This document shows, in pieces, positions 3,514 through 61,977 of a stretch of DNA of 64,000 nt. The stretch lies in IMG/VR virus record IMGVR_UViG_3300046516_000137. One strand, given 5' to 3'. The stretch comes from an uncultured virus (IMG/VR IMGVR_UViG_3300046516_000137). Its lineage: Duplodnaviria; Heunggongvirae; Uroviricota; Caudoviricetes. The notes under the pieces were generated by a model that saw only the letters and a program-made list of their open reading frames with translations, ran no database searches and was not told the DNA's origin. Every line of letters begins with the position of its first letter. Position 1 is the first letter of the stretch. The position numbers and the translations under genes were made by a program.

Positions 3514-3649
3514 GTTCCCTCTCCATCTGTGCGTTGAAACGATCTACGTAGAACTGTGTCCAGCGATCGTCCAGTGTTGCTACGTCCAGAGGATCGTGTT
3601 CGTACCCGTCTTCCGGATACCAGTCCTCTGCTTCAGATGCTACTCCCAT
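3488..3649 (-). CDS. small hypothetical protein
   Basis: Acidic 53-aa ORF from an internal ATG (MGVASEAEDW), tightly packed. Confidence 0.5.
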   Translation of the reverse strand: MGVASEAEDWYPEDGYEHDPLDVATLDDRWTQFYVDRFNAQMERELAKGRAIE

Positions 3650-4234: not shown

Positions 4235-4451
4235 TAGCTCTCTCCAGATCCTTTCGTATGACCTCTTCACACTCTGGACTATTACAGTAGTGGCCTTGAT
4301 AGTCCACGTCAAGCCTCTTGGTAGGAACCTTGCAGATAAAACAAGGCTCTGCTGTATCTACAAGCCATGCTGAATGATCCATCCATACAAAACCATACTC
4401 GTCCTTGTAAGGAAAGACCATATCAGGGGAGTACCAGGTCTCCTTATCCAT
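4218..4451 (-). CDS. hypothetical Zn-binding protein
   Basis: CFIC...YCNSPEC; start abuts the Pnk stop. Confidence 0.6.
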   Translation of the reverse strand: MDKETWYSPDMVFPYKDEYGFVWMDHSAWLVDTAEPCFICKVPTKRLDVDYQGHYCNSPECEEVIRKDLERANDESR

Positions 4452-5357
4452 CTAGAAGTCTCCGTCTGCAACTTGCAGTACACGAATTCGCAGCTTACGA
4501 AGACGACGTACAACACGGTCCCTGTCATCGAACCAGGCCAGGATATTGTACTTACCACGAATGTACTTGTCCACCATGTACTGCTTCACATCAGCATCGT
4601 TCCAGTCCTTCTGGTCTATACCATCGCGCATGTAGAATTCCTGGAACCTGATGTGATGAATAGCATTCCATTCCTCAGTGTCCGCGCGGCAAGTATCAGG
4701 GCGACCAGACATTCCAAAATGCGGAGCCCATGGCAGACCGTCCTCAATAACATCTTTAAGCAGAACGATATCTGCATGAGGTGCGTCAGTCAGGACACGA
4801 GTGTAGTCATATGGAGACCTTGCAACATGCTTGGCAGTGGTTCCGTCAGTGTCCCAGACAACACAGTAAGGTAGATCCGGATCAAACTCAAGAGGAGCTG
4901 ACAGGACAACATCGTTCATCCACTCAGCAGTCAGCTTCCACTTATCAATTCGTGCAGCCATCTTACGGATAACCGTTTCACCAACAGAACGTTCTCCGTC
5001 AATTGCGCGGCTCCAGTCATTGGTGATGCAGTCCTCAGTAGTAATATGGCTGAAATCCTGGACCTTGAACAGTACTTCACCATCAAAGAGACGCTTGATG
5101 CGCTTAGGCATATTCTTCTCAATGTGAGTGTTGTCCACAATCACGTCCTTGCCCGCCTTTACAGCAGCAAGAATAGCCTTGTCCTGGATATCCAGTGCAA
5201 TAGCCTCAGCATCCTTTGAGTAAGGAAGTCCAACCATTGCACGGATGTCATCCATGTTCACACGGACAATCTGACCATTGGACTCCTCTACCTGCTGCTT
5301 GGCCCAGGTACTCTTGCCACTAGCGGGCAGACCGCGACAAAGTGTAATCGTAGTCAT
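4452..5357 (-). CDS. pseT: polynucleotide kinase/3'-phosphatase (T4 PseT-like)
   Basis: N-terminal P-loop GLPASGKST and VDNTH; C-terminal HAD motifs DTDGT, SGR and FDDR. Confidence 0.93.
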   Translation of the reverse strand: MTTITLCRGLPASGKSTWAKQQVEESNGQIVRVNMDDIRAMVGLPYSKDAEAIALDIQDKAILAAVKAGKDVIVDNTHIEKNMPKRIKRLFDGEVLFKVQDFSHITTEDCITNDWSRAIDGERSVGETVIRKMAARIDKWKLTAEWMNDVVLSAPLEFDPDLPYCVVWDTDGTTAKHVARSPYDYTRVLTDAPHADIVLLKDVIEDGLPWAPHFGMSGRPDTCRADTEEWNAIHHIRFQEFYMRDGIDQKDWNDADVKQYMVDKYIRGKYNILAWFDDRDRVVRRLRKLRIRVLQVADGDF

Positions 5358-14335: not shown

Positions 14336-14344
14336 GTGTGCTCC

Positions 14345-15049
14345 TTATATATTGTTCAGTGGAGATGTACCAGCGTGGAAAGCTGTAGTAGGTGGATCTC
14401 TGTGGTAGGTAACAGCCATCATAGCTGTGGCAGTAATACCTGTTGTCAGTACATTCTGTACAGCTATCATTTCAATAGTAGTACCTTGAGTCCAAGGCAG
14501 TGTAATAGAAGCTGACTGGTGATTAGATCTCTGCCATCCCTGAGGGAAGTATCTAAGATCGTCTACGTATTCATATGTTCCACCAGCGGGTAGCGCTCTT
14601 ATACCTAACCCACCTGCTCTGTTAAACGGTGTCTGCTGACTGTCGGCTGGTTGATTGTCTGCGTGCCATCTTATATAGATGTCAAAAGTATATACACCTG
14701 ATCGTGTACAGGTAAGAGTTGGTCCACCACCCCACATATTATGGGTGTCCCAAGTCTTACTGGTCCACTGGATAGGGACAGAGGTATTGTATCCCACGAC
14801 AATATTGTTGGCCCAGACATTGGCGTAAGGCTTTGACTTCCCTTGTCTTACAGACGTTATTCTTGAAGATACAGTAGGCCAGGAAGCAAGCTGCCCATCG
14901 ATAGTGTCCGTATTAGGAAGAACACCTAGTATATTCTGAGTAGCTGATATCTCATCATACGCCACATTTACGTCAGCAGCTTCTACTAGTTCTGTATAGT
15001 CCACACGGTTAGAGAACTTCTTTACTGCGTTAGGATAGATTGCTACCAT
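14345..15049 (-). CDS. minor tail protein
   Basis: Position after baseplate J; beta-rich C-terminus. Confidence 0.65.
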   Translation of the reverse strand: MVAIYPNAVKKFSNRVDYTELVEAADVNVAYDEISATQNILGVLPNTDTIDGQLASWPTVSSRITSVRQGKSKPYANVWANNIVVGYNTSVPIQWTSKTWDTHNMWGGGPTLTCTRSGVYTFDIYIRWHADNQPADSQQTPFNRAGGLGIRALPAGGTYEYVDDLRYFPQGWQRSNHQSASITLPWTQGTTIEMIAVQNVLTTGITATAMMAVTYHRDPPTTAFHAGTSPLNNI

Positions 15050-46655: not shown

Positions 46656-47708
46656 TTACTCTGCTTCTGGCCGTACTAAATCCCATACCTTATTGGCAAT
46701 ATCCTTGTTATCCAGTAATGCGAATAAAAGACCTGCATTAGGACTGTCCTTTACATAAAGAGCGAAATCCTTACGTGTGGCAACTCCCTGAAAGTAAAGC
46801 TCTACTGCATGAAACTCTGCACTGATCATAGTATAGGTATCCCAGTAGGCATCAAAGATTACCTGGTAAGTAGAGCGTAACCACTCATGCCATTCATCAG
46901 GAACGATACTGCATAGTTCCTCTAAGGTCTTGCCTTCCTTCATGTTCTCCCAGATCCGACGCTTTGTCAAACCCGTCACGATCTTGTGTAAAAGTACGTA
47001 GTCCTCTTGCTTCAGCTTGATCCTGTAGTCCAGATCGGGGAAGCAGATGACGTAGCCTTCTGCATTGGGTCTAGGAGCGGCTTCTATGGCCTCTCTGAGC
47101 GTCTTGTAGGGGAAGGTAGTGGTCTTGGGACCATACCACTCTTCTACGTCCTTAGCGGGGCGTATAGAGCCTGTTATGGCGTTACGTGCAGCCAAGAGAA
47201 CCAGGTCTTCACGATCCCCATAATTCAGAACGATACGGTTACCTGGATAGATGATCTCTACCAGGTAAGTCTCCTCATGCCACAGATCAAGTTTGTAACC
47301 CTTGTGAGCAGTATTCAAAAACTTGGTTGCCCAGATTGCCTGGTCTGAAACAAAGGAACCACGGGTAGCTACATACCAGTTGTTATGGTACTCAAAGACG
47401 ATACCTAGTGAACCGTCCATCTTGTCAGTTACTTCAACTCGGTAGCTATCCAGTAGACAGTTGTCATCAGGATCTTGTCCGTAATTCAGGAACTTGTCAA
47501 AAGGACGGGCAACAATATTCAACTTGTTGTCAATAATGAGACCACGACACTGTCTGGTTACCTTATTCCACTCATTGTCAAACTGAGCCTTCTCTGTATA
47601 GTTCACGATACTAATCGGTAAAGTGGGGTGCTTATTAACCCTAATATACTTGTCAATTAGCATCTTCCGATAGAGACTCATCGGCATCAGTCCTGAAAGC
47701 TTCGTCAT
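46656..47708 (-). CDS. RNA ligase (T4 Rnl1-like)
   Basis: CRGLI, ARPFDKF, motif I KMDGSL, TRGSF, EGYV, RIKLK. Confidence 0.92.
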   Translation of the reverse strand: MTKLSGLMPMSLYRKMLIDKYIRVNKHPTLPISIVNYTEKAQFDNEWNKVTRQCRGLIIDNKLNIVARPFDKFLNYGQDPDDNCLLDSYRVEVTDKMDGSLGIVFEYHNNWYVATRGSFVSDQAIWATKFLNTAHKGYKLDLWHEETYLVEIIYPGNRIVLNYGDREDLVLLAARNAITGSIRPAKDVEEWYGPKTTTFPYKTLREAIEAAPRPNAEGYVICFPDLDYRIKLKQEDYVLLHKIVTGLTKRRIWENMKEGKTLEELCSIVPDEWHEWLRSTYQVIFDAYWDTYTMISAEFHAVELYFQGVATRKDFALYVKDSPNAGLLFALLDNKDIANKVWDLVRPEAE

Positions 47709-48186: not shown

Positions 48187-48215
48187 GCCGAAGCTAAACA
48201 GAGCATTTAGTGGAG

Positions 48216-48299
48216 TGGATGCCGAGGGACTTGAACCCCCAGACCCCGAAGGGAGCAAATTTACAGTCTGCGACGCTACCAATTACGCTTTAGACATCC
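48216..48299 (-). tRNA. tRNA-Tyr(GTA)
   Basis: Cloverleaf; loop CTGTAAA; long variable arm. Confidence 0.9.
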
Positions 48300-48403
48300 A
48301 TTGGTACCCGAGCCAATCCCTGTCCTTCCTCATTATATAGAGGCGACTAGAGCATCGAATACATTCGCTACGCGGTGGATTTTTATTTACGTAGGACCGT
48401 AAG

Positions 48404-48476
48404 AGGGAAGGACGGGGCTCGAACCCGTAGCCACTGGGGTCACATCCCAGTAATCTGCCAATTGATATACCAACCC
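48404..48476 (-). tRNA. tRNA-His(GTG)
   Basis: Loop ATGTGAC; two acceptor-stem mismatches. Confidence 0.8.
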
Positions 48477-48512
48477 AAAGCTAGTTTACACTAGCGACGT
48501 TCTTACTGCAAG

Positions 48513-48584
48513 TACGAGTACCAAGAGTTGAACTTGGGACTAGACTTTATCAGAGTCTCGTGATAACCGTTTCACCACACTCGC
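48513..48584 (-). tRNA. tRNA-Ile(GAT)
   Basis: Loop CTGATAA. Confidence 0.9.
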
Positions 48585-48585
48585 A

Positions 48586-48894
48586 TTATTCAAGACCAGA
48601 TATTATTTCCTTTATGAATACCTTAGGCTTAGCGCCTACGACATACTTAATGATACTGCCCTTGTGGAACAAAAGCATAGTGGGTATAGATGAGATATCG
48701 TATCTCTTTGTCAGTTCTGGATTCTCATCCGCATTGACCTTTACTACATCTAGCCAGTCGTTCTCTTCTGCTACTGATTCTAGCACAGGAGCCATCATCT
48801 TGCAAGGGTTGCACCAGGTGGCCCAGAACTCTACAAAAACTGGCTTCTCAGATTCAAGTACCTCTGAGAATGTATCAGTAGTAATATCTCTCAC
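48586..48894 (-). CDS. trxA: thioredoxin
   Basis: FWATWCNPCK, ISSIPT. Confidence 0.92.
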   Translation of the reverse strand: MRDITTDTFSEVLESEKPVFVEFWATWCNPCKMMAPVLESVAEENDWLDVVKVNADENPELTKRYDISSIPTMLLFHKGSIIKYVVGAKPKVFIKEIISGLE

Positions 48895-48918
48895 TATTCC
48901 CTCTTTCTTTTATTCACG

Positions 48919-48993
48919 TATCCCAGGCAGGGCTCGAACCTGCATATCTCCTGTATATAAGACAGGGGCCGTCACCAATTTGGCTACTGGGAC
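48919..48993 (-). tRNA. tRNA-Ile(TAT)
   Basis: Stem CCTGT/ACAGG, loop CTTATAT. Confidence 0.85.
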
Positions 48994-49083
48994 ATTACAT
49001 GCATTTAGTTGGCAGCCATCTCCCACTACAGGCGGTACTGTGTTGCTATCCCTTAGCCAACGGGGTTATGCATGAACCATACG

Positions 49084-49166
49084 TGGAAGATAAAGGAATC
49101 GAACCCTCAGGCTTTCACACCTGGCACGGTTTTCAAGGCCGTTTCGCACCCTGTGCGCTATCTTCC
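49084..49166 (-). tRNA. tRNA-Ser(TGA)
   Basis: Loop CTTGAAA; long variable arm. Confidence 0.88.
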
Positions 49167-49170
49167 AAAG

Positions 49171-49254
49171 CGGTAGATGTGAGAATCGAACTCACTGGGC
49201 CTTTATAGCCCTACTATATTTCCAGTATAGCTGCTCACCGGCTGCATATCTACC
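49171..49254 (-). tRNA. tRNA-Ser(GGA)
   Basis: Loop CTGGAAA; long arm. Confidence 0.85.
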
Positions 49255-49261
49255 ATTGGTG

Positions 49262-49341
49262 CGGAAGGCAGAGTACTCGAAACTCCAGCCGTTAAACTGA
49301 ACGGATTAGCAATCCGTCTGCCCACCTCGGGCTTACCTTCC
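49262..49341 (-). tRNA. tRNA-Ser(GCT)
   Basis: Loop TTGCTAA; long arm. Confidence 0.85.
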
Positions 49342-49345
49342 AGAG

Positions 49346-49422
49346 AGCGCATAGGGAGAGTCGAACTCCTAAGTAGCAGTTTTGCAGACTGCCCCCGCGC
49401 CCTGCGAGTTAACTCTACGCGC
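49346..49422 (-). tRNA. tRNA-Cys(GCA)
   Basis: Loop CTGCAAA; U73; irregular D region. Confidence 0.8.
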
Positions 49423-49423
49423 A

Positions 49424-49597
49424 TTAATCAATAATCACAACTTCACTGTAGCTAAGACGATATGTCTTAATCTTATCCCCATCCATCTTGGCAGTACACC
49501 AAGTTGCTTCACTCCGGGTAATTCTGCCTTCTTTACCGAATGCGTTACTACGAGGGTTCGTAACCTTGATCCTAGTACCTTCTTTGTTCTTACCCAC
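49424..49597 (-). CDS. 57-aa SH3/KOW-like micro-protein
   Basis: GTG start with RBS GGAGG; GTRIKVTNPRSNAFGKEGRI. Confidence 0.6.
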   Translation of the reverse strand: MGKNKEGTRIKVTNPRSNAFGKEGRITRSEATWCTAKMDGDKIKTYRLSYSEVVIID

Positions 49598-49612
49598 AGT
49601 TTGCCTCCGTGT

Positions 49613-49756
49613 TTAAAGAAACTCTACTTCGGACTTCTTGTAGTAAAGCGTATCCTTGCCTATCTTAACAAGAACTTGGTCATCCAGCAAATGGACAACT
49701 ACGCCTCTCTTGCCCGCATTCTTACCCACAAGAATAAGGACATGTCTGTCAGCCAC
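49613..49756 (-). CDS. 47-aa KOW-motif micro-protein
   Basis: GTG start with RBS AAGGAG; VLILVGKNAGKRGVV. Confidence 0.65.
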   Translation of the reverse strand: MADRHVLILVGKNAGKRGVVVHLLDDQVLVKIGKDTLYYKKSEVEFL

Positions 49757-49778
49757 TATATTTCTCCTTGTTTGAAAG

Positions 49779-49857
49779 TGGAGATAGGGGGAGTCGAACC
49801 CCCGCTCCTAGCTATTCCGCGTGCGGTTTCAAAGCTAGTCGAATCCAGATAATCCCC
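49779..49857 (-). ncRNA. minimal tmRNA-like RNA (tRNA-like domain only)
   Basis: 5' GGGGATTATCTGGATTCGAC matches the tmRNA 5' signature; P2 CTAGCT/AGCTAG; T arm GGGGG-TTCGACT-CCCCC; G3.U70 and A73. Confidence 0.75.
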
Positions 49858-49938
49858 ATAAATGCACAGGCACCAAGCCTCTGTGCTCCCAGGTCAACGA
49901 ATAACATAACCATCTCCTAAGAGACCCTGGCCCTTACG

Positions 49939-50009
49939 TACCCACTGAGGGAATCGAACCCCCGCAATCTGTGTGTAAAACAGATGGTCTTCCATTAACC
50001 TAAGCGGGC
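49939..50009 (-). tRNA. tRNA-Val(TAC)
   Basis: Loop TTTACAC. Confidence 0.9.
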
Positions 50010-50042
50010 AAACACCCTTTCGGGCGGTATTACTATTGTAAC

Positions 50043-50246
50043 TTAAAACATTCTAGTAGGAGTAAACATATCAGCAGGAAGAGTTTCAGACTTCACATGA
50101 TTTCCTACCCAAGTAATATCTACTACTAGATTACCATGGTCGTCTCTGTATTCATCACTATTTGCATGAGCTTTACTATTACGTGGACCCCACAGAGAAT
50201 CTCCTGCTTGAATCTCGTTTCGTTTCTTTCCTAACAAGAATCCCAT
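50043..50246 (-). CDS. hypothetical protein
   Basis: RBS AAGGAGG before MGFLLG. Confidence 0.65.
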   Translation of the reverse strand: MGFLLGKKRNEIQAGDSLWGPRNSKAHANSDEYRDDHGNLVVDITWVGNHVKSETLPADMFTPTRMF

Positions 50247-50264
50247 CGTTGCCTCCTTTTGGCG

Positions 50265-50337
50265 TGCGCCTGGAGGGACTCGAACCCCCAACCTAACGGG
50301 TAGAAACCGTTTGCTCTATCCTTTGAGCTACAGGCGC
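50265..50337 (-). tRNA. tRNA-Arg(TCT)
   Basis: Loop TTTCTAC. Confidence 0.92.
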
Positions 50338-50359
50338 AGTGCCCTTTCGGGCGGTATTA

Positions 50360-50692
50360 CTAGGAGATAACCATTTTCTGTAGTGCTATTGACCAGATAC
50401 CGTGTGCCGCCAGAGTATTCAAGTCTTCACATGCATCAGGATCATCCTTGGAACAGATTTCCCAACCCTTGCTAGTCCATTTGGTCCAGAGATTGTACTC
50501 TTGACACTCGGCAATTCCTGGCCAAATACCCTGCCATACGGTATTACAATCATATTCATTATGATCATCACCCCAACGCTGACGTCCTGTCAGAGCGCAT
50601 CTGGCAATGTCACAACCTTCTTGATGAAACTCTCCGATACTTACCGAACAATCAGGACAGTTTTCTCGTAGTTCCTGCACTAATGCCTCCAC
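50360..50692 (-). CDS. Cys-rich hypothetical protein
   Basis: CPDC...HQEGCDIARC. Confidence 0.7.
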   Translation of the reverse strand: MEALVQELRENCPDCSVSIGEFHQEGCDIARCALTGRQRWGDDHNEYDCNTVWQGIWPGIAECQEYNLWTKWTSKGWEICSKDDPDACEDLNTLAAHGIWSIALQKMVIS

Positions 50693-50787
50693 ACTAGAAG
50701 TTAATCCAGATCGATTTTGGCCTCTGGAGGAGCCACCATGTATTGAGGCTTTCTAGGGTGCGTTTCAACATGGATTAGGTTTCCCTG

Positions 50788-50860
50788 TACGGCTAGAGGG
50801 ATTCGAACCCCCGACCTTCTGATTCGTAGTCAGATGCTCTATCCACTGAGCTATAGCCGC
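50788..50860 (-). tRNA. tRNA-Arg(ACG)
   Basis: Loop CTACGAA. Confidence 0.93.
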
Positions 50861-50874
50861 AAAACCCCGAAGGG

Positions 50875-51018
50875 CTAGTTTGCATTGTGACGTCTTGACA
50901 AGTGCATTTGTAGTCCTACTTCGGCATCTTTCTTAGTCTTGTACCCTGAAATGCCTATCTCACTTCTACACCACTTACACTGCCAATACCAACATAGTTC
51001 TTTAGAATAATCAACCAC
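50875..51018 (-). CDS. 47-aa C2H2-like micro-protein
   Basis: RBS AAGGAG; CKWC...HLSRRH. Confidence 0.55.
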   Translation of the reverse strand: MVDYSKELCWYWQCKWCRSEIGISGYKTKKDAEVGLQMHLSRRHNAN

Positions 51019-51036
51019 TGGATTACTCCTTGTTAA

Positions 51037-51549
51037 TTACTTCTTCAATCCTAGCAGATACTTTCTCAACTTACCAGGCGTAACCAGGTATGGTTCCCTG
51101 TCAGTCAAAGTAGAACCCACTTCATCATAGTCCTCAGAAACTAGCTGAGAACAGATAAGGTGCTTGGAATCAAGGACTCTCTTGGTAACTCCTGGAGCCT
51201 TGATGTGAAAACGATACATCGCAATTGCCAGATAGTCAAGGAAGCTGTACTTTACTCCTACTTGCCCGACTGCTCTGTTAACTATAGTAGTACGCTGGTC
51301 ATCTGTCAACTGAACCAGACCTGTTGACCAGAGGATACTGCGTCCATCATACTCACTCAGTTGGGATATACAAGCCCCACCAGGTTCAGCCTCTACGATC
51401 TGACCGTTACCGATATAGATAAAGGCGTGTTCATAGTTGGAGAACCCATCTCCATTCAACCACTGTCCTAAGCGTATCAACACTCCTACGCCACCAGCAA
51501 TGGATACAAGTCCGAAGTCTCCTGGTAACGGAGTTACACTATCAATCAT
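51037..51549 (-). CDS. permuted papain-like NlpC/P60 (YiiX/YebB-like) protein
   Basis: PGDF, HAFIYIG, VEAEP, KYSF, ICSQLV. Confidence 0.85.
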   Translation of the reverse strand: MIDSVTPLPGDFGLVSIAGGVGVLIRLGQWLNGDGFSNYEHAFIYIGNGQIVEAEPGGACISQLSEYDGRSILWSTGLVQLTDDQRTTIVNRAVGQVGVKYSFLDYLAIAMYRFHIKAPGVTKRVLDSKHLICSQLVSEDYDEVGSTLTDREPYLVTPGKLRKYLLGLKK

Positions 51550-51699
51550 CACACTTCTCCACATGAACTCTTAAAGCCACATTAGCATCATGCTCAGTGG
51601 AAAACGGACCTTCTACGTGCTTACGCTTGTCACTACATTGATGGGAGTATGCCCAACCTCTGTTAGCCTTATATACCATTTTATTCTCCTTATTATACG

Positions 51700-51770
51700 T
51701 ACCCCACCACGGTACTGCCCCGTGTTTCGCGGGGTAAAAGCCCGCTACATCACTTTAATGTTTGTGAGGC
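51700..51770 (-). tRNA. tRNA-Lys(TTT), non-canonical T loop
   Basis: Loop CTTTTAC; T loop GGCAGTA. Confidence 0.75.
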
Positions 51771-52041
51771 GCAAATCATTAGCCGTCTTCTCTAAATGGC
51801 ATGGATTACATAGTAGTTGACATTTGTCAACCTCAGCCCAAAAGAAATCCTCACTTCTAGAGGAAGCTCTTGCTATTGCCATTAGTTTAGTTGAGGGGTC
51901 AATGTGATCAAACTCTAAATCTTCTGTCTCTCCACAGCTGACACATTGACCTCCCAAATACCCTATGGCCACCTTTCGACGTGTTTCCCATCGACGTTTC
52001 ATATATTCATTCATCTTATTATTATAATCTTTATATGGCAT
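51745..52041 (-). CDS. HNH endonuclease
   Basis: CVSCG...LEFDHIDP...KCQLLCNPCH. Confidence 0.9.
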   Translation of the reverse strand: MPYKDYNNKMNEYMKRRWETRRKVAIGYLGGQCVSCGETEDLEFDHIDPSTKLMAIARASSRSEDFFWAEVDKCQLLCNPCHLEKTANDLRLTNIKVM

Positions 52042-52134
52042 AGCTACAGTATAGCACGGGTTAAAACACAAAAGTTTAACCCTTGTCAACCGGAGACACT
52101 GAGGGGCATAAGGCCATTTCTGGCCCGTTTTACT

Positions 52135-52431
52135 TTAATCAATCTGCCAGCTAGTCTGACAGTCAGCGCAAGTGCCATAATGGCCTCTAGCACCACGAGA
52201 GACTGGTAGAAGAGTTCCAAGACCACCAATAATCTTGCCTGTGAAAAGATTAGTGTTATGGTCCCCACGTCTATCTCTTGGACAGTCAACAAGTTCCCCT
52301 GTTGACCCACCAGGAGAATTCCTGGTAAGATTACGCTTTTCCTTACCATTCTTCTTGTAGTAACGCGCAGCATGGTCATTTACGTCAAACGGCTTACGAG
52401 GTTCTGGCTCTTTCTTACCAAATAAACTCAT
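52135..52431 (-). CDS. Zn-binding hypothetical protein (paralogue A)
   Basis: CP...DHNTNLFTG...TCADC..SWQI. Confidence 0.7.
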   Translation of the reverse strand: MSLFGKKEPEPRKPFDVNDHAARYYKKNGKEKRNLTRNSPGGSTGELVDCPRDRRGDHNTNLFTGKIIGGLGTLLPVSRGARGHYGTCADCQTSWQID

Positions 52432-52664
52432 GATGCAGCATTCCCCTTCTTGTCAGTAAGCTGCCATGCACAACCGCAGTCGTTACAGGTCATATATGTA
52501 CCCTTGTCTCCACGAGATGTACAGAGAAGTGGGTATACCTTCGTTCCATCAGACTGCTGCTTATAACCACAAGTTATCATACCTGTGAAGAGATGGGTAT
52601 TATGGTCTCGTTTGCCACTAGGACAAGGTGGACTGGAATTGAATACCGACCCACCTTTATACAC
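52428..52664 (-). CDS. Zn-binding hypothetical protein (paralogue B; start may be ~52696)
   Basis: CP...DHNTHLFTG...TCNDC..AWQL. Confidence 0.7.
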   Translation of the reverse strand: MYKGGSVFNSSPPCPSGKRDHNTHLFTGMITCGYKQQSDGTKVYPLLCTSRGDKGTYMTCNDCGCAWQLTDKKGNAAS

Positions 52665-52726
52665 AAATGCCTTAATGGTATCACCTAGAAAACTGATAGT
52701 TTGCCTCCTATAGTTTTTATATAACG

Positions 52727-52799
52727 AGCCTTATCAGGGAGTCGAACCCTGTCTCTCTCCGTACCAAGGAGAAGTGCTAACCATAGTCACTAATAAGGC
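52727..52799 (-). tRNA. tRNA-Thr(GGT)
   Basis: Loop TTGGTAC. Confidence 0.88.
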
Positions 52800-52958
52800 A
52801 TAAATTCTATGTGGTGTGCTGCTACGCCAAAGCTGGGGTTATTATTTCTTGCCCAGGACGATTCCTCGTTACCCTTCCGTTCTGGAAGCACTCTTTAAAA
52901 GATGGCTGCTTCTAAGCCAACTTTCCACATATAGGGAAACGTGTACTTTGTTTCCTTG

Positions 52959-53029
52959 TACTCCGCCAGGGACTCGAACCCTGATCCCCAGATTAAGAGT
53001 CTGGTGCATCACCTTAATGCTTGCAGAGC
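52959..53029 (-). tRNA. tRNA-Lys(CTT)
   Basis: Loop CTCTTAA. Confidence 0.9.
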
Positions 53030-53155
53030 ATGTGAGTAGTTCTCGTAACACTACACCATAGACGTTTACTGAAGCCGATATCTATGGTTCATGTTAATTA
53101 TTGGACTCAAAGTCTTCAGTCACCGGAAATCCCTGACTCCTACTCAAAGCCATTG

Positions 53156-53227
53156 TGGAGCAACAGGGAATCGAACCCTGATTTCCGCCGTGCAAAAGCG
53201 GAGTAATAGCCATTATACGAAAGCCCC
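53156..53227 (-). tRNA. tRNA-Ala(TGC)
   Basis: Loop TTTGCAC; G3.U70. Confidence 0.88.
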
Positions 53228-53371
53228 ATTGTGCCGTAAGGAGACCCCACTATCTCTGCGTGAGGTCACCAGGATGAGCCTTAGCCGAGAGATATTACGC
53301 ATATCTCATCCCAGTAGGTTCCCTTACTTGCGCGCCTTACCCTTAGCGTTTGCACTTCCCTGATGTAGTCT

Positions 53372-53400
53372 AGCTTAGCAGATCAGACTCTCAGAGTCAA
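53372..53400 (-). promoter_or_regulatory. sigma70-type promoter
   Basis: TTGACT-17-TAAGCT with extended -10 TG. Confidence 0.7.
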
Positions 53401-53798
53401 TCTTGCCAGACCCAGCCAGATCGGTGTACTTCAACATCACGTTCATGCTTTTCGATCTCATCTGCTGGAATTACCAGAATGTCATCCTGTAGCAGATACT
53501 GCTCCAACGTAGTATACGTATAGGTATAGCTTCCGAATATGCGTGCAGATTCGATATACTCGTTACCTTCATAGCCGCACCCACGCTCATAAGCAGTAGC
53601 TTCTCTCAAGGAGTCGCTTTGAGTAATGGAATAGTCTTCACCACAGCAAGAACACGTTACGTTATTCGGGTCATGGCCAAAACGGCTGTAGAAGACAGAG
53701 GTAGCTTGATTCTCTGGAGCCTGAATGTAGATGTACTGATATGGAGACTCCTTGGTTCCACCACCAGAATGCATATCCATAAACTGTGTCCACACCAT
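53397..53798 (-). CDS. hypothetical phage protein
   Basis: RBS AAGGAGG; FMDMHSGGG, VTCSCCG. Confidence 0.75.
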   Translation of the reverse strand: MVWTQFMDMHSGGGTKESPYQYIYIQAPENQATSVFYSRFGHDPNNVTCSCCGEDYSITQSDSLREATAYERGCGYEGNEYIESARIFGSYTYTYTTLEQYLLQDDILVIPADEIEKHERDVEVHRSGWVWQD

Positions 53799-53830
53799 AT
53801 TGCCTCCTTTATCGTGGTACGTCATTAGGT

Positions 53831-53864
53831 AAAAATAAACTCCACCAGTATTTCTACGGTGGAG
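53831..53864 (-). terminator. intrinsic terminator
   Basis: CTCCACC...GGTGGAG followed by TTTATTTTT. Confidence 0.65.
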
Positions 53865-53877
53865 AGGATTAAGTTAA

Positions 53878-53986
53878 TGATAGATCGTAGCATACCGGAC
53901 TCGAACCGGTGCGACGGACCAGTAACGATCCGTACTCTACCTCTGAGTTAATACTACGAGACTGAATTAACTGTCTCGATCTATCA
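53878..53986 (-). ncRNA. tRNA-like RNA with irregular anticodon loop and extended acceptor stem
   Basis: Cloverleaf at 53886-53958 with canonical D and T arms; flanking 10-bp inverted repeat. Confidence 0.6.
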
Positions 53987-53988
53987 AG

Positions 53989-54061
53989 CTCCCTCGCCCA
54001 GATTCGAACTGGGAACCGGTGTATTAACAGTACACAACTCTGCCTATTGAGTTACAAGGGA
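53989..54061 (-). tRNA. tRNA-Asn(GTT)
   Basis: Loop CTGTTAA. Confidence 0.9.
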
Positions 54062-54138
54062 ATAAACCCTAACCACAAGGGAGAGGGTGTGTTATCAGCT
54101 CAACAAGAGTATCAGGTACCTCTTCTCTCGTCAAGCAG

Positions 54139-54209
54139 CACGACGTCAAGGATTCGAACCCTGGATAACGGTTTTGGAGACCGGTGTGTTACCACTACAC
54201 TAACGCCAT
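54139..54209 (-). tRNA. tRNA-Trp(CCA)
   Basis: Loop CTCCAAA. Confidence 0.88.
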
Positions 54210-54256
54210 AAGTTGGTTCCGTTGTGTAATCGGACAACGGTTTCCTAAAACCTGCG

Positions 54257-54340
54257 TAGCCCTTATCGGATTCGAACCGATACGTCACAAGGACACTGGT
54301 TCCTAAGACCAGCGCGTCTGCCAGATTCCGCCAAAAGGCC
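54257..54340 (-). tRNA. tRNA-Leu(TAG)
   Basis: Loop CTTAGGA; long arm. Confidence 0.92.
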
Positions 54341-54345
54341 ATGCG

Positions 54346-54771
54346 TTAGCTTATTAAGTTATGGACATAATGAGAAGCTTCATAGTCTGAAGCAGAAGCA
54401 TTATGTATTCCGCCGTGTCCTCTATGATGCTTTTCGCACAAGAACATGAAGTTTTCGTCAGATTCTACCCAAGCCCCGATTTCATCAGGATTTGAGATAC
54501 CGGGAAAGTCTCTTTCAAGGTAGGTTAAGTCTACACCCTGCTGCATACTGAATTCAACATGTGCGTGGTGAAGTTCTAGTCCTCCGACACATTCTGCTGT
54601 ATCTCCGCCACGTCTTAGCGCGAAATCACAAACTGCTGTGTCTACATGAGTCTTGCGGTAATGGTTGAAATCCTTGTAATGTGGATCATCTGTACGAGCA
54701 GGGTGAGCAGGAAACGCCACAGTATAGTGCTTGGTTTCTGCTTGACTGTGTGCGTTTACTATCTTACCCAT
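54346..54771 (-). CDS. His-rich HNH-like hypothetical protein
   Basis: LELHH...FLCEKHHRG.GGIH. Confidence 0.65.
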   Translation of the reverse strand: MGKIVNAHSQAETKHYTVAFPAHPARTDDPHYKDFNHYRKTHVDTAVCDFALRRGGDTAECVGGLELHHAHVEFSMQQGVDLTYLERDFPGISNPDEIGAWVESDENFMFLCEKHHRGHGGIHNASASDYEASHYVHNLIS

Positions 54772-54791
54772 GTTGCTCCCTATATGTCAAG

Positions 54792-54866
54792 TAGTCCTAG
54801 TCAGATTCGAACTGACACTAAACGGGACTTAAATCCGTTGCTTCTACCTGATTGAGCGATAGGACC
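54792..54866 (-). tRNA. tRNA-Leu(TAA), short variable arm
   Basis: Loop TTTAAGT. Confidence 0.82.
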
Positions 54867-54875
54867 ATAATAAAG

Positions 54876-54949
54876 TACTCCAGATGGGACTCGAACCCAC
54901 AACGCACAAGGTTTGAGCTTGCGTCCTCTAGCCATTGGGATACTGGAGC
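54876..54949 (-). tRNA. tRNA-Leu(CAA), short variable arm
   Basis: Loop CTCAAAC. Confidence 0.85.
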
Positions 54950-55098
54950 ATAAGTGACGATTCCGGATTAGCATCCGGGAGCCACTACACAGGTCTTTAG
55001 CTTTTAGTCGGTTCAATGCTTGATCCCTTAGATAGTACCCCGGAAGTACTTTCTGTGTCAAGCTGTCCGTGCCAGGAGTTACTGTGCAGAACCTAAAG

Positions 55099-55172
55099 AG
55101 CCGCATGAAGGACTTGCACCCTCCGCCTGTCGCTTACAAGGCGACTGCTCTTCCTACATGAGCTAATGCGGC
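55099..55172 (-). tRNA. tRNA-Thr(TGT)
   Basis: Loop CTTGTAA; T loop TGCAAGT. Confidence 0.88.
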
Positions 55173-55276
55173 AAATACCACTATATCCTATTACCCAATG
55201 TAAGTGGTCAACATCAGAACCCGTATTAGGGGGTTTTAGTGAAAGCCAGCGGAAGGAGGAACACTGGCTTTCCGTA

Positions 55277-55564
55277 TTAGGAGGTTCCGGAAGCCGTAAC
55301 AACCCAGTCTGTGATTGCATTAAGAGTAAAGTCAATAGGCTTTGCAAAAGCGTTTCCGCTTAGGTACACAGTCCAAAGACCATCTGTTCCACCAGCGCCA
55401 GGAGCTACAGGAGCCTGAACAACAGATGTAACTGTTGGATAGCCAAGACCAGTAGCTGGAACAGGCTGAACATAGCAGTGACCGTCAGCAGCAGCTACGA
55501 AAGCAACAGCGGTTCCGACAGTCAGAGCATTTACTCTAGTTGGTGCGTTATAAGTGATTGCCAT
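55277..55564 (-). CDS. A/T/V/G-rich protein of structural-like composition
   Basis: 95 aa, followed by a strong hairpin at 55241-55272. Confidence 0.7.
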   Translation of the reverse strand: MAITYNAPTRVNALTVGTAVAFVAAADGHCYVQPVPATGLGYPTVTSVVQAPVAPGAGGTDGLWTVYLSGNAFAKPIDFTLNAITDWVVTASGTS

Positions 55565-55646
55565 TTTTGAGCCTTTCATGAAAGAACTATATTTAGTTCG
55601 CTATAGCCCTATTATCGTATCATGAAAGGTCATTTAATTCTTAACG

Positions 55647-55718
55647 TACCCCCGGAGGGAATTGAACCCTCTCTTCAGGCTTGAAAGGCCAGTGTACTAA
55701 CCAATATACTACGGGGAC
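55647..55718 (-). tRNA. tRNA-Glu(TTC)
   Basis: Loop CTTTCAA. Confidence 0.88.
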
Positions 55719-55955
55719 AAAAACCCTACCAGTCCCGGAGAACGGTAGGGAACAATCTCGGCAAGGGAACAGTAGTGCCTGCTTCGAATCAGGGACTGTT
55801 GGTGCCTTGCTGAGTATAAATAGTCCTTAGGGTTACCCATCCCTTAACTACACTGAATGGTTGATCACAGGCAGCTTATCTCATTTCAGCTAGCGAGACC
55901 GGATGTGGCTTCAGCTCATCCCGCAATCTCTTGAGACCTGTGAGGGTAACAAACG

Positions 55956-56029
55956 TACTCCGTACGGGGCTCGAACCCGTAATCTCTTCCTTGAGAGGGA
56001 AGTGACTTAACCATTTTGTCCAACGGAGC
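55956..56029 (-). tRNA. tRNA-Glu(CTC)
   Basis: Loop CTCTCAA. Confidence 0.9.
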
Positions 56030-56346
56030 ATATTACTTATTTTTTAGACTGTCTACTACTTTGCGCTGATCCCTGATCTTTGTCGTCAAAGCCTGTCGCT
56101 GTGCACTCTGCTTCACAGTACGCAATTCTTGCATCATCTCATGAAGCTTGTCAAGTGCGTCCTTGTATTCCTGGCTATAACCCATATTACTTGTGTCTCC
56201 TCAGAAGTTCAGTATTGATCTGATCGATTTCTCGTTCAATAAACTTCTTACGTTGTTTTGACAGTCCACCCTGCTTGATGATGTCCTGTCTTAGTTTTAG
56301 ATAGCCTTTTAACTGTTCACTTGTTTTAGACTCTAAATGTTCCATG

Positions 56347-56418
56347 CGCCCACGACGGTATTCGAAACCGCCCTTGCAGCTTGACAGGCTACCGTGCTAA
56401 CCACTACACTACGCGAGC
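56347..56418 (-). tRNA. tRNA-Asp(GTC)
   Basis: Loop CTGTCAA. Confidence 0.9.
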
Positions 56419-56443
56419 AAAGTTGCTTTCGCAACTGGTTAAG

Positions 56444-56752
56444 TTATTCTGGCCAACTAATGTTCGGATACTGCTCAACTGCTATACCATCTCGTACTAT
56501 TACCCTTGACATATCTGGAGATTCTTCTCCATGTCGCAGGATTATCAAGAAGTTGTTGGGATAAGCATATGCTAACTGCTGTAGGTCTGTCAACCAGCCA
56601 TACCACTTAGTACAGTCATAACCGCTTACTTGACCCTCATAGTCTTCCCAACCAGGAGATCCCCAACCATATTGCTCATCAGCATTGTTGAGAACATCCT
56701 TGATATCGGGAATATCTGTATCCACTACTTCGAAAGTAGAGTAATAACCCAT
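56444..56752 (-). CDS. hypothetical protein
   Basis: RBS GGAGG; KWY...GEE motif. Confidence 0.7.
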   Translation of the reverse strand: MGYYSTFEVVDTDIPDIKDVLNNADEQYGWGSPGWEDYEGQVSGYDCTKWYGWLTDLQQLAYAYPNNFLIILRHGEESPDMSRVIVRDGIAVEQYPNISWPE

Positions 56753-56776
56753 AGTTGCCTCCATAGATTGTAAAAG

Positions 56777-56847
56777 CTCCCCCACCAGGGCTCGAACCTA
56801 GACTCCGAGAGCCAAAGGCTCGTGTGCTGCCATTACACTAAAGGGGA
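56777..56847 (-). tRNA. tRNA-Gln(TTG)
   Basis: Loop CTTTGGC. Confidence 0.85.
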
Positions 56848-56851
56848 AAAG

Positions 56852-56922
56852 CTCTCCAACCTGGATTCGAACCAAGGCCAGCGAATTCAGAGTCCGCGAT
56901 GCTGCCGTTACACCATTGGAGA
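56852..56922 (-). tRNA. tRNA-Gln(CTG)
   Basis: Loop CTCTGAA. Confidence 0.9.
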
Positions 56923-56997
56923 ATAAGAGGGTCGCGTATTGGGACAATTCAAACCCAAGAACCAATACCACCTACTCTAGGCGGGAAACCCAGCAAG

Positions 56998-57068
56998 TAC
57001 CGTATGCGAGAATCGAACTCGCGAACTCTGTTTGGAAGACAGATATGTTACCTCTACATCAATACGGC
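56998..57068 (-). tRNA. tRNA-Gly(TCC)
   Basis: Loop CTTCCAA. Confidence 0.9.
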
Positions 57069-57081
57069 ATTATTTAATTGT

Positions 57082-57158
57082 TGGTGGCGGAGCTTCGGAA
57101 TCGCACCGAATTAACCCAGCTTATGAGACTGGTCGAGATAACTAACCTCCCGCCCGCA
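57082..57158 (-). tRNA. tRNA-Met(CAT), initiator-like, CCA encoded
   Basis: Loop CTCATAA; 1:72 mismatch. Confidence 0.75.
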
Positions 57159-57159
57159 G

Positions 57160-57230
57160 TAGCTGATGACAGAATTGAACTGTCGTTGACGGCTTATGAA
57201 ACCGTTGTTCTGCCATTGAACTAATCAGCC
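57160..57230 (-). tRNA. tRNA-Met(CAT) elongator (or Ile2)
   Basis: Loop TTCATAA. Confidence 0.8.
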
Positions 57231-57294
57231 ATACTACTAGACTGAGGAGCCGAACTGCGCTACCTCAATCTTCTCGTCCTTAATAAGCTTCTCT

Positions 57295-57323
57295 ACCTTA
57301 GCAGAGGCTCTAAGAGTCTTCAA
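57295..57323 (-). promoter_or_regulatory. sigma70-type promoter
   Basis: TTGAAG-17-TAAGGT with extended -10 TG. Confidence 0.55.
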
Positions 57324-57361
57324 AGGCTTACGCATATCGTCTCCTTCTAGTTGTTGTAAAG

Positions 57362-57434
57362 TGGCTCCCCCCGGATTTGAACCGAGATACATCGGGCTTC
57401 AACCGATTGCTCTACCAGGTTGAGCTAAAGAGCC
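57362..57434 (-). tRNA. tRNA-Phe(GAA)
   Basis: Loop TTGAAGC. Confidence 0.88.
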
Positions 57435-57512
57435 AATTGAGTTACTTACTTGTATTTAGCATCGTATCTATTATGTGATTTGGTGATGTCTATACGTTGA
57501 TCATAACTCTAG

Positions 57513-57586
57513 TCTAGATGGCAGGATTTGAACCTGCGACCGCCCGAATCCAAGTCGGGTACGCTACCAAACTGCGCTACATCTAG
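57513..57586 (-). tRNA. tRNA-Pro(TGG)
   Basis: Loop CTTGGAT. Confidence 0.9.
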
Positions 57587-57598
57587 ATTAATACTACG

Positions 57599-57670
57599 TC
57601 GGGCACCCGAGAATCGAACTCGGTTTATCCTGTTCCCAAAACAGGCGGATTACCATCTTCCTCGTGCCCG
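57599..57670 (-). tRNA. tRNA-Pro(GGG)
   Basis: Loop TTGGGAA. Confidence 0.88.
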
Positions 57671-59851: not shown

Positions 59852-60267
59852 TGACAGGATTCTGGGAAGACGGAAATTACGGTATGGATTTTCTGGCTGC
59901 ACGAAATAAAGCAGATGCCAAGAAGGCAGAAGCGGCCAGAAAGACCAAATGGGAGATAGAAGAGGAACAGCGCAATAAGCTAGCCGCTGCTCTCTGGAAA
60001 ATGGAGACGCATCCTGGCAGAGACCACTGTAGTAGTTGTTTTGGCGAGTACTATGACGGCTATGCCGGTGGTGGAGTAATGATGGATGGCTACTGCTGTT
60101 GCAAGGACAATGGAATTACCGGAGTCGTTCAGCCGCTTGACGATTATGACTATCGTGTCAAGTATCCACCAGTAAATGGAAAGGTCCCCGAAATCTTTGA
60201 AAAGTGGGGACCAAGAACACAGGAACGCTACCTGAAGAGATTTGAAGGAGAACTAAATGGAGCATAA
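59851..60267 (+). CDS. hypothetical protein
   Basis: TAATG coupling; CSSC...CCC. Confidence 0.65.
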   Translation: MTGFWEDGNYGMDFLAARNKADAKKAEAARKTKWEIEEEQRNKLAAALWKMETHPGRDHCSSCFGEYYDGYAGGGVMMDGYCCCKDNGITGVVQPLDDYDYRVKYPPVNGKVPEIFEKWGPRTQERYLKRFEGELNGA

Positions 60268-60787
60268 TCCGATACTGCTACTGGACGTAGATGGTGTTTT
60301 AAATCCGTTTGCGGCCAAGGCTACACAGAGACCTGACGGTTATGAGACCCACAGAATGCGCCCTAATGGCTTTCTTATGCAGAATGCACTTAGAGTATGG
60401 CTTAATCCTCTGCACGGTGAGAAACTCCTGAGTCTCGGCTACGACCTTGTATGGGCAACCATGTGGGAATCCGAAGCCAACGAGTGGATCGCGCCGCATA
60501 TAGGCCTTCCTGAGCTTCCTTTCATCAGTTTCAAGCACGCTAGCTGGTACGACAGGGATGGTCTGTACATCAAGACCAAGACTATTGCACAGACCATGAA
60601 CGAAGAGTATGCTGGGGTACCGTTCATCTGGGTTGATGACGAGACAACTCCCTTTGATACCAACTATCTGAGGCAGAACTGTCCCGTAAGATCAAAAATC
60701 TTTACTATTAACCCCAGAATTGGGCTAGTAGACCGAGATTTTGATGAAATCCGAGCATACAAGGCAAAACTTATGGGATACCGATGA
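60257..60787 (+). CDS. HAD-family phosphatase (RNA-repair-associated type)
   Basis: LLDVDGVLNP, LVWATMW, FIWVDDE. Confidence 0.85.
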   Translation: MEHNPILLLDVDGVLNPFAAKATQRPDGYETHRMRPNGFLMQNALRVWLNPLHGEKLLSLGYDLVWATMWESEANEWIAPHIGLPELPFISFKHASWYDRDGLYIKTKTIAQTMNEEYAGVPFIWVDDETTPFDTNYLRQNCPVRSKIFTINPRIGLVDRDFDEIRAYKAKLMGYR

Positions 60788-61395: not shown

Positions 61396-61977
61396 ATGAA
61401 ATATACGTACGACACGGAATTCATTGACAACGGAGAAACCATAGAATTCTTATCCATAGGGATAGTTGCTGAAGACGGCAGGGAATACTACGCTATTACT
61501 TCTAATACTGAAGTCTTAGCCAGAGCCCGTCAGAACCCCTGGCTGAAGCAGAATGTACTAGCGCAGTTACCTATTATAGATATCGCAGACGCTGGTGGCT
61601 TCGGGTTCAACCCCAACCACGCAGACTACCAGCATGTAAAGCCAAAGCACCAGATAAAAGAAGAAATTTCGGCCTTCCTGCGGTATGAAGCGGATATAGA
61701 ATACTGGGCATGGTTCGCTGCATATGACCATGTTGTACTCAGCCAACTATTTGGAAGAATGCTGGATCTTCCTATGGGATTCCCCATGTATACCAATGAC
61801 ATAAAGCAGGAACACAGACGACTGGGCTACCCAAGAATTCCAGAACAGGCTCAGGGGGCACACAATGCCCTGGAAGACGCTAGATGGAACATGGATACCC
61901 TGCACTACCTAGAGGCCCTAGAAAGCCCCAAAGAATCGGTTCTAGCGGCAAATCCTAAGAGAACGAGGATATGGTAA
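61396..61977 (+). CDS. DEDD 3'-5' exoribonuclease (Rv2179c/RNase AS-like)
   Basis: YDTEF, SIGIVAEDGREYYA, AAYDHV.L.QLFG, HNALEDARW. Confidence 0.9.
   Translation: MKYTYDTEFIDNGETIEFLSIGIVAEDGREYYAITSNTEVLARARQNPWLKQNVLAQLPIIDIADAGGFGFNPNHADYQHVKPKHQIKEEISAFLRYEADIEYWAWFAAYDHVVLSQLFGRMLDLPMGFPMYTNDIKQEHRRLGYPRIPEQAQGAHNALEDARWNMDTLHYLEALESPKESVLAANPKRTRIW

Follow-up and report, generated by a model that had tools for sequence, protein, structure and literature searches.

The window analysed here is a stretch of 64,000 nucleotides from the uncultured virus IMGVR_UViG_3300046516_000137, a soil phage of the Caudoviricetes whose host, judged by its relatives, is probably Streptomyces. The window has a G+C content of 45.8% and encodes tail sheath and baseplate proteins, portal, capsid and terminase, together with a large tRNA array on the minus strand. 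Inside this array, between the genes for tRNA-Ser and tRNA-Val, lies a 79-nt element which by its sequence is a phage gene for a transfer-messenger RNA (tmRNA) of which only the tRNA-like domain (TLD) remains, and which belongs to the same family as the 'TLD only' RNA of Mycobacterium phage DS6A.

The mini-tmRNA was read directly from the minus strand at 49776-49857 as acceptor stem, D-loop analogue, helix P2, hairpin, T arm, discriminator and trailer (Table 1), in exact agreement with the sequence transcribed by a model that had worked from the letters alone (the first-pass annotation). The acceptor stem comprises the pairs G1:C, G2:C, G3:U, G4:C, A5:U and U6:A, with U7 facing a further U to which it is not paired, and the tmRNA-type loop TGGATTCGAC that follows it has no D stem. 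P2 is 6 bp long and is capped by an internal loop and a small hairpin. The first-pass annotation had recognised this hairpin but read it as 4 bp with a 2-nt loop, whereas it is read here as CCG-CACG-CGG, with 3 bp closed by a tetraloop. In the minimum-energy fold the T arm, the acceptor stem and P2 with its small hairpin appear as expected. The folding energy of -25.8 kcal/mol is unremarkable (z = -1.01, with 32 of 200 shuffles equally or more stable), and support for the structure is thus drawn from the family model, homology and covariation and not from stability.

Table 1. Coordinates of the mini-tmRNA, its parts and the tRNA genes around it (RF00023 is the Rfam tmRNA model; R1 and R2 are covariance models described in the text)
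Feature	Position	Strand	Basis and remarks
Array of 31 tRNA genes enclosing the element	48215..57670	-	ARAGORN, all on the minus strand
tRNA-Val(tac), conserved upstream neighbour	49938..50009	-	ARAGORN
tRNA-Ser(gct), conserved downstream tRNA neighbour	49261..49341	-	ARAGORN and synteny
Mini-tmRNA (tRNA-like domain only), G1 to discriminator A	49779..49857	-	79 nt; RF00023 54.8 bits; R1 80 bits, R2 70.1 bits
3' trailer CTT, CCA not encoded	49776..49778	-	Sequence reading
Acceptor stem 5' strand GGGGATT, partner 49780-49786	49851..49857	-	Pair list
D-loop analogue ATCTGGATTCGAC, without D stem	49838..49850	-	Aligns to tmRNA consensus GAucuGGaUUCGAC
Helix P2 CTAGCT/AGCTAG, internal loop TTGAAA / AAT, hairpin CCG-CACG-CGG	49808..49838	-	Fold and pair list
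T arm GGGGG-TTCGACT-CCCCC	49787..49803	-	RF00023 alignment and pair list
Acceptor 3' strand TATCTCC and discriminator A	49779..49786	-	Pair list

A scan of the whole window with Rfam returned 26 tRNA matches and a single tmRNA match, at 49776-49857 on the minus strand, where RF00023 scores above its gathering score of 47 (E = 9.1e-19) and is aligned over model positions 1-374; on a short stretch around the element the score is 47.4 bits. The 5' part of the alignment covers the acceptor strand, GGaUUCGAC and the start of P2, the 3' part covers the end of P2, GGA, the T arm and the 3' strand of the acceptor, and between them 302 internal model positions, which include the pseudoknots and the tag frame, correspond to nine bases in the element. 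ARAGORN makes no tRNA or tmRNA call at 49779-49857 and finds no tag peptide. A permissive Rfam scan of 49700-49940 placed no family of the tRNA clan above tmRNA and otherwise gave weak, unrelated matches; it retained the tmRNA alignment at 18.6 bits, and any match to the tRNA model lies below that value and below the tRNA cut-off of 29. The two-piece (permuted) tmRNA model RF04321 reaches 15.2 bits against a cut-off of 47. The element therefore combines a tmRNA match above the gathering score that extends to both ends of the model with G3:U70, the discriminator A, a T arm and a D-loop analogue that lacks a D stem, while the RF00023 alignment and ARAGORN find no resume codon, no tag frame with a stop codon and no pseudoknots, and there is neither a cloverleaf nor an anticodon arm with an alanine anticodon. 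Its size (in the range of about 65-90 nt), the two TLD halves set on a short closed P2, the missing coding part and its homology to the DS6A element are those of a DS6A-type RNA. This bears out the anatomy given in the first-pass annotation, a tmRNA tRNA-like domain with alanine identity but without the messenger portion, along with its expectation of a tmRNA match to both ends and a poor fit to tRNA.

To find further members of the family, viral contigs were scanned for a pattern in which a T loop lies within 20-50 nt of the 5' TLD motif, and 53 loci came out. Nineteen of these (15 distinct sequences, one identical to that of the window element) have a G3:U acceptor, a discriminator A and a closed P2; a further 19 represent one ordinary tRNA family and the last 15 are other things. 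Each of these 15 distinct mini sequences has an acceptor 3' strand that terminates in TCC, with the discriminator A after it. The covariance model R1 was built from 16 of the scan sequences with DS6A left out, and a second model, R2, from 33 aligned subfamily sequences that include DS6A (alignment A4); R2 was then used to align 47 distinct elements (alignment A5). In A4 the D-loop residues G18, A19 and C20 are invariant or nearly so, as is the inner motif AAA[A/G]CCGCA[C/T]GCGG, which takes the form AAAACCGCACGCGG in DS6A, GAAACCGCACGCGG in the window and AAAGCCGCACGCGG in copies of the type found in Streptomyces phage BRock. Two scans of viral contigs for this 14-mer yielded, among the 240 matches listed, 25 loci that represent 24 further distinct mini-tmRNAs, the rest being chance matches. 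Among the 120 matches listed from a scan of bacterial genomes (TTCGAC...motif), 118 are chance occurrences in coding sequence and two are real copies, and the idea that the inner motif is a property of ordinary full-length tmRNAs finds no support among them. One of the two real copies, a mini-tmRNA of 54.2 bits, belongs to Streptomyces lycii; a serine-recombinase gene lies some 0.3 kb away, and the copy is probably part of a prophage or integrated element. The same genome also carries a normal 379-nt tmRNA (184.1 bits).

The helices are supported by covariation. Standard pairs occupy 95.5% of the cells in A5 compared with 68.3% in shuffles, and cells with changes on both sides of a pair number 282 compared with 85.4, values that none of 500 shuffles reaches in either case, while moving the partners by 1-3 columns leaves pairing at 37-52%. 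Changes on both sides are seen in 18 of the 23 pairs across the 47 sequences; they fall on all eight pairs of P2, on four of the seven acceptor pairs (pairs 4-7) and on four of the five T-stem pairs, and 99.1% of T-arm cells are paired. A5 was fitted to its own model and so is biased towards its structure, and the 47 sequences are related to one another, yet the margins over the shuffle and slide controls are large despite both. An earlier alignment of 21 sequences gave a like result for the acceptor and T stems. In the MAFFT alignments A1 and A4 the 5' ends and the 3' strand of P2 are out of register, and in A3 only 56% of P2 is paired.

The first three acceptor pairs behave differently from the others, G1:C and G2:C being present in 47 of 47 sequences and G3:U in 46 of 47. 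The exception, the contig L041, is a matter of alignment, as the rows of the window and of L041 are shifted by one base at the 5' end in A5 and a direct reading of the third pair in L041 gives G:U. Since G:C or A:U at this position would not harm the helix, the invariance of G3:U argues that charging is selected. Selected charging is not something that a pure sponge for the tmRNA-binding protein SmpB requires, and to the extent that it can be read from these sequences it argues for an action on the ribosome.

The nearest cultured relatives of the window by DNA are the Streptomyces phages Alone3, LuckySocke, BRock, GiJojo and pSt2308, with genomes of 112-116 kb that share the gene order RNA ligase, tRNA-Tyr, tRNA-His, thioredoxin, tRNA-Ile, tRNA-Ser, tRNA-Val, tRNA-Arg, tRNA-Arg. 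In all five of these complete BRock-like genomes an orthologue of the element lies between tRNA-Ser(gct) and tRNA-Val. Four of the orthologues are unannotated as RNA genes and had no part in the training of R1, which nevertheless scores them at 71.3 (BRock), 68 (LuckySocke), 67.7 (GiJojo) and 65.8 bits (pSt2308); the Alone3 copy, which occupies the same position, belongs to the R1 training set. With RF00023 the five genomes give only the mini elements, at 64.5, 61, 57.4, 57.1 and 36.8 bits, the last being the Alone3 copy, which has a diverged D-loop motif and falls under the RF00023 cut-off. The next matches are at most 29.9 bits and stand at the positions of tRNA-Ala genes, and therefore none of the five genomes carries a full-length tmRNA. 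An identical 82-nt element lies on a viral contig of 112,630 bp that is near-identical to the window and 100% complete according to CheckV, and here too a full-length tmRNA is absent. The statement in the first-pass annotation that related phages carry full-length tmRNA consequently applies to the more distant BE-cluster phages described below, and not to the five BRock-like genomes or the 112,630-bp contig, which have the mini form only. The occurrence of a syntenic, previously unannotated orthologue in five cultured Streptomyces phages is new, and given this synteny the element is not a recent deletion.

Inspection of these genomes also brought to light several annotation problems and neighbouring RNA genes. 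The GiJojo (L066) gp44 coding sequence, a 'hypothetical protein' at 4124-4366, starts two bases upstream of the mini-tmRNA and spans it, which is likely an annotation error. The same is likely for BRock (L065) 3588-3669, annotated as 'tRNA-Cys' on the plus strand where ARAGORN finds tRNA-Arg(tcg) on the minus strand. A tRNA-like gene of 126 nt that lacks annotation (Rfam tRNA, 37.5 bits) is found in Alone3 (L063, 6837-6962) and LuckySocke (L064). It contains an insertion of ~50 nt, ends 7 nt ahead of the mini-tmRNA and may be an intron-bearing or interrupted tRNA. Alone3 further holds two sub-threshold Rfam matches, one to the Y RNA-like YrlA at 14288-14402 (33.8 bits, cut-off 69), close to a Ro-like gene, and one to manA RNA at 11639-11871 (47.8 bits, cut-off 55.2), between two tRNA-Lys genes. 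A 626-nt permuted 'tmRNA*' called by ARAGORN in BRock is treated as spurious, and a 343-nt tmRNA called by the same program at 1233-1575 of the contig L002 is probably so, its 'tag' frame passing through the D loop of the mini element itself, although an upstream extension is possible.

In a second group of relatives, the BE-cluster Streptomyces phages (about 131-134 kb), a full-length tmRNA is annotated, its tag being for example ANSNVASAYALAA or ANSKFAFALAA. Beside their tRNA-Val lies an unannotated 79-80-nt element that scores 35.8-38.7 bits with R1 and 53.2 bits with R2, as at 2836-2915 in Daubenski (L001), 1501-1580 in Jay2Jay (L072) and 301-379 in four further sequences (L438-L441). In 82 phage records this BE mini copy is matched over 80% or more of its length, with no annotation in any of the 12 examined, and the joint presence of mini and full-length forms was checked in two phages, Jay2Jay and Daubenski. 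The acceptor stem with G3:U is identical to that of BRock (GGGTTTG/CAAATCC) and P2 and the T arm are kept, with a compensatory change in P2 between Jay2Jay (GTTAC/GTAAC) and Daubenski (GTTAG/CTGAC) and joint changes of the acceptor and T stems in StarPlatinum, Birchlyn and Battuta. Divergence from the canonical form is seen in the D-loop motif and the inner hairpin. The 3' 33-35 nt of the window element match the 3' ends of the BE-cluster tmRNAs at 88-91%. The diverged mini copy in BE-cluster phages is likewise a new observation.

RNAs of this kind are already known. Mycobacterium phage DS6A, the one phage example named in the published record found, carries the label 'TLD only' in Hudson, Lau and Williams 2014 (PMC4131195; tmRNA Website tmID 11587). 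According to PMC4131195 and PMC11915505, which cite Mao 2009, a TLD-only RNA of DS6A or a similar one was reported to act as an inhibitor of tmRNA in E. coli, an effect that did not need charging (PMC4131195). R1, although trained without it, finds the DS6A element at JN698994.1 28478-28560 with 56.8 bits. The DS6A and window elements are both about 80 nt long, and neither contains a tag frame. They have in common the T arm, the G3:U acceptor with its discriminator A, a D loop of tmRNA type (GGTGGTCGAC in DS6A and GGATTCGAC in the window), a P2 that ends in a small hairpin, and the inner motif AAA(A/-)CCGCACGCGG. They differ in their surroundings, as the DS6A copy stands alone between protein genes (gp33 and the gene for the DNA polymerase III beta clamp) in a 60.6-kb phage with an integrase, whereas that of the window lies within the tRNA array of a large phage with tail sheath and baseplate. 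The portions of the literature available contain no description of a TLD-only tmRNA in Streptomyces phages, and a 2025 tmRNA database that covers viral genomes may include them.

With one-piece tmRNA (SsrA, RF00023) the element shares the tRNA-like domain at both ends and the alanine identity elements, and its acceptor stem is nearly identical to that of the Jay2Jay tmRNA and differs from that of the S. lycii tmRNA in the seventh pair only (GGGGATT/TATCTCC compared with GGGGATG/CATCTCC), as would suit mimicry of the host. Unlike one-piece tmRNA it has no pseudoknots, resume codon, tag frame or stop codon and cannot serve as a messenger, and CCA is encoded in the S. lycii host tmRNA but not in the element. 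Organellar tmRNAs without a coding sequence (CDS) occur in the mitochondria of jakobids and oomycetes and, in forms of about 65 bp, in the plastids of Mallomonadaceae (PMC11915505, PMC4131195); for the mitochondrial ones, which persist alongside SmpB, PMC11915505 suggests a helping role where mRNAs are incomplete. The first-pass annotation, which knew tag-less tmRNAs from some protist mitochondria only, is thus corrected both by DS6A (PMC4131195) and by the plastid forms (PMC11915505). The organellar RNAs resemble the element in being reduced to the tRNA-like domain with SmpB encoded elsewhere, but belong to separate lineages for which no sequence relationship was found, and they represent the reductive evolution of a resident rescue system whereas the phage form would act in a cell where full tmRNA persists. 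The closest structural parallel to the TLD halves joined by a short capped helix is an engineered Thermus thermophilus fragment, in which the 5' 25 nt and the 3' 34 nt of tmRNA are connected via UUCG and which was co-crystallised with SmpB, the protein that binds the TLD (PDB 2CZJ; PMC3985003). Such an RNA is enough for SmpB binding; the fragment is artificial and lacks CCA, whereas the natural element has a longer P2, in which a purine-rich internal loop is conserved, and a further small stem.

The neighbouring tRNA-Val recurs in Alone3, LuckySocke, BRock, GiJojo, pSt2308, the contigs L041 and L054 and the BE phages. On contigs from related metagenomes (runs X3 and X6) the 77 nt that separate it from the element in the window (within 49859-49937) are replaced by 5 nt and the two genes abut, one contig linking tRNA-Val to the 5' half of the element over a skip of 77 nt; the arrangement in L041 is similar, with 3 nt between them. 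Over 49519-49895 a 26-kb contig of a relative has no listed difference from the window, and the nearest record, a 28-kb fragment (G001), has no tmRNA match, which speaks neither for nor against. CCA is encoded in none of the 30 array tRNAs checked and in all 30 a C directly follows the discriminator, as it does in the element. The region 49300-50400 contains one promoter-like site, on the opposite strand, and no terminator-like site, which is no more than chance. A tRNA-Ala(tgc) gene separate from the element lies at 53155-53227 (ARAGORN), and at 53885-53958 ARAGORN reports a 'tRNA-???' with a two-base anticodon that scores 45.3 bits with the Rfam tRNA model. A 47-aa open reading frame (ORF) at 49613-49756 on the minus strand, with a good ribosome-binding site, starts 19 nt past the element and contains a KOW motif (PF00467, 27.7 bits, cut-off 22.3); it recurs only in near-identical contigs and shows no conserved link to the element. 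Among 74 flanking ORFs of 14 loci no shared partner family was found by Pfam. The window also encodes a set of RNA-repair genes, comprising an Rnl1-type (T4) RNA ligase at 46659-47708 that adjoins the tRNA array, a polynucleotide kinase-phosphatase (PNKP) at 4455-5357, a HAD_SAK_2 protein (a HAD of the 'Swiss Army Knife' RNA-repair type) at 60257-60784 and an Rv2179c-like 3'-5' exoribonuclease at 61396-61974, a set that fits a phage expecting RNA damage. Ro-like RNA-binding proteins are also present in relatives of the phage.

The reading that has the best support is that the element is probably an alanine-accepting, SmpB-dependent competitor of host tmRNA that would spare stalled products from tagging. 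A decoy for SmpB was suggested in the first-pass annotation and is plausible, the proposal having already been published for DS6A, where it is credited to Mao et al. 2009 (PMC4131195, PMC11915505). The RNA would be transcribed together with the tRNA array, excised in the manner of a tRNA and provided with CCA by the host enzyme, and it may be inferred that it shares these steps with the array from its trailer, which is like those of the neighbouring tRNAs, and from the lack of promoter- or terminator-like sites on its strand. It would then be charged with alanine by the host alanyl-tRNA synthetase (AlaRS) via G3:U70 and A73 and be bound by host SmpB, as suggested by the conserved identity elements and the published structure of the TLD with SmpB. 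The determinants that a review names for AlaRS (G3:U70) and for EF-Tu, RNase P and the ribosome (the tRNA-like shape) are all kept (PMC3985003). No SmpB gene (PF01668) was found in any of the five phage genomes searched, and any SmpB involved must therefore be that of the host. Competition with the host's full-length tmRNA for SmpB and stalled ribosomes would allow the products of broken or non-stop phage messages to escape the SsrA degradation tag.

Several observations weigh against this proposal, at least in its simplest form. If titration needs no charging (PMC4131195), the invariant G3:U70 is not explained by a pure sponge and points to a role on the ribosome. The published inhibition was observed in E. 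coli with the RNA of another phage, and SmpB binding as described in PMC3985003 does not account for the fixed sequence of the inner hairpin in the actinophage subgroup. The lack of promoter- and terminator-like sites on the strand of the element within 49300-50400 leaves its expression without a signal of its own. The BE phages have a tag-encoding tmRNA and no SmpB of their own, and a pure sponge for SmpB would also disable the phage's own tmRNA. The mini gene is evidently old, syntenic and able to coexist with a tag-encoding phage tmRNA, which argues against a simple decoy model. It may tentatively be proposed, because 82 BE records keep a structurally conserved mini copy beside tRNA-Val and BE phages also carry a full tmRNA, because the alanine pair is unchanging and because the actinophage inner hairpin is fixed, that the mini-tmRNA is more than an SmpB sponge, namely a distinct and ancient phage gene that has a task of its own on the ribosome or through some further partner. 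The two RNAs, one of which tags and one of which does not, would then jointly decide which stalled products are destroyed.

Rescue without tagging, the other role raised in the first-pass annotation, is a possible, if doubtful, alternative that overlaps with competition for SmpB and differs from it in whether the ribosome is released. Here the alanyl mini-RNA would enter the empty A site with SmpB and EF-Tu and accept the nascent chain, after which the peptidyl-RNA would drop off or be hydrolysed, leaving the ribosome free and the protein unmarked. The fixed G3:U70 and discriminator A, set among acceptor pairs that covary, speak for this mechanism in view of the published inhibition that needed no charging (PMC4131195), and so do the review model, which needs no more than the TLD and SmpB for every step as far as peptidyl transfer (PMC3985003), the persistence of CDS-less mitochondrial tmRNAs alongside SmpB (PMC11915505) and the coexistence of both forms in BE phages. 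However, there is no known mechanism by which a peptidyl-TLD would be released without a stop codon, and the DS6A-type RNA has been reported as an inhibitor and not as a rescuer (PMC4131195, PMC11915505). It is unlikely that the element serves another ligand, with the tRNA-like top half providing processing and stability and the inner hairpin binding a different factor of host or phage, perhaps to decoy a defence that targets RNA. Such a role would suit the near-invariance of the inner motif across A4 (33 sequences) next to a freely changing P2, the richness of the phage in RNA-repair genes, and the BE copies, whose D-loop motif, a site of extensive SmpB contact according to PMC3985003, is altered while the helices are kept by compensation. 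Yet other viral mini-tmRNAs (L013, L016, L017, L049 and others) keep the TLD without the hairpin sequence, and no candidate ligand is known, nor do the flanking ORFs share a family that could point to one.

That the element is a decaying remnant, a functionless pseudogene of a full-length phage tmRNA that has lost its middle, is very improbable. The resemblance of its 3' end to those of the BE-cluster tmRNAs and the divergence of the Alone3 copy would suit a pseudogene, but 47 distinct sequences preserve the architecture and the length of about 80 nt, every helix showing compensatory changes, the gene is syntenic in five cultured phages and the BE phages keep both forms. Scarcely any weight can be given to the element being an ordinary or degenerate tRNA-Ala gene or a protein-coding sequence. 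G3:U70, A73 and the T arm are common to tRNA-Ala, and true tRNA-Ala genes score about 28-32 bits with R1, but the anticodon arm is absent, ARAGORN is silent and the window has its tRNA-Ala(tgc) elsewhere. A coding sequence might be suspected from gp44 of GiJojo, annotated over the orthologue, and from a 33-aa frame in the window that runs through the 5' half of the element and starts at an ATG with AGGAGA upstream of it; the frame, however, is not conserved, that of the window from the ATG abutting G1 stops after 15 codons, and the changes among orthologues preserve base pairs and not codons. A remnant of a phage attachment site (attP) was also considered and dropped, both TLD halves being present with no integrase nearby.

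Bacteria rescue ribosomes and tag proteins mainly by trans-translation. What the present analysis adds on TLD-only RNAs is the synteny in cultured phages, the errors in annotation, an inner motif held in common and, in BE phages, the occurrence of the mini form beside a full-length one. The genome records can be amended accordingly, both for the unannotated copies and for that of GiJojo, which is labelled a protein gene. As the gene is found in cultured, easily grown Streptomyces phages, its function is directly testable in a laboratory host. If the proposed function is true, phages that cripple or redirect trans-translation with an RNA of 80 bases would represent a small-RNA route to the takeover of host translation.

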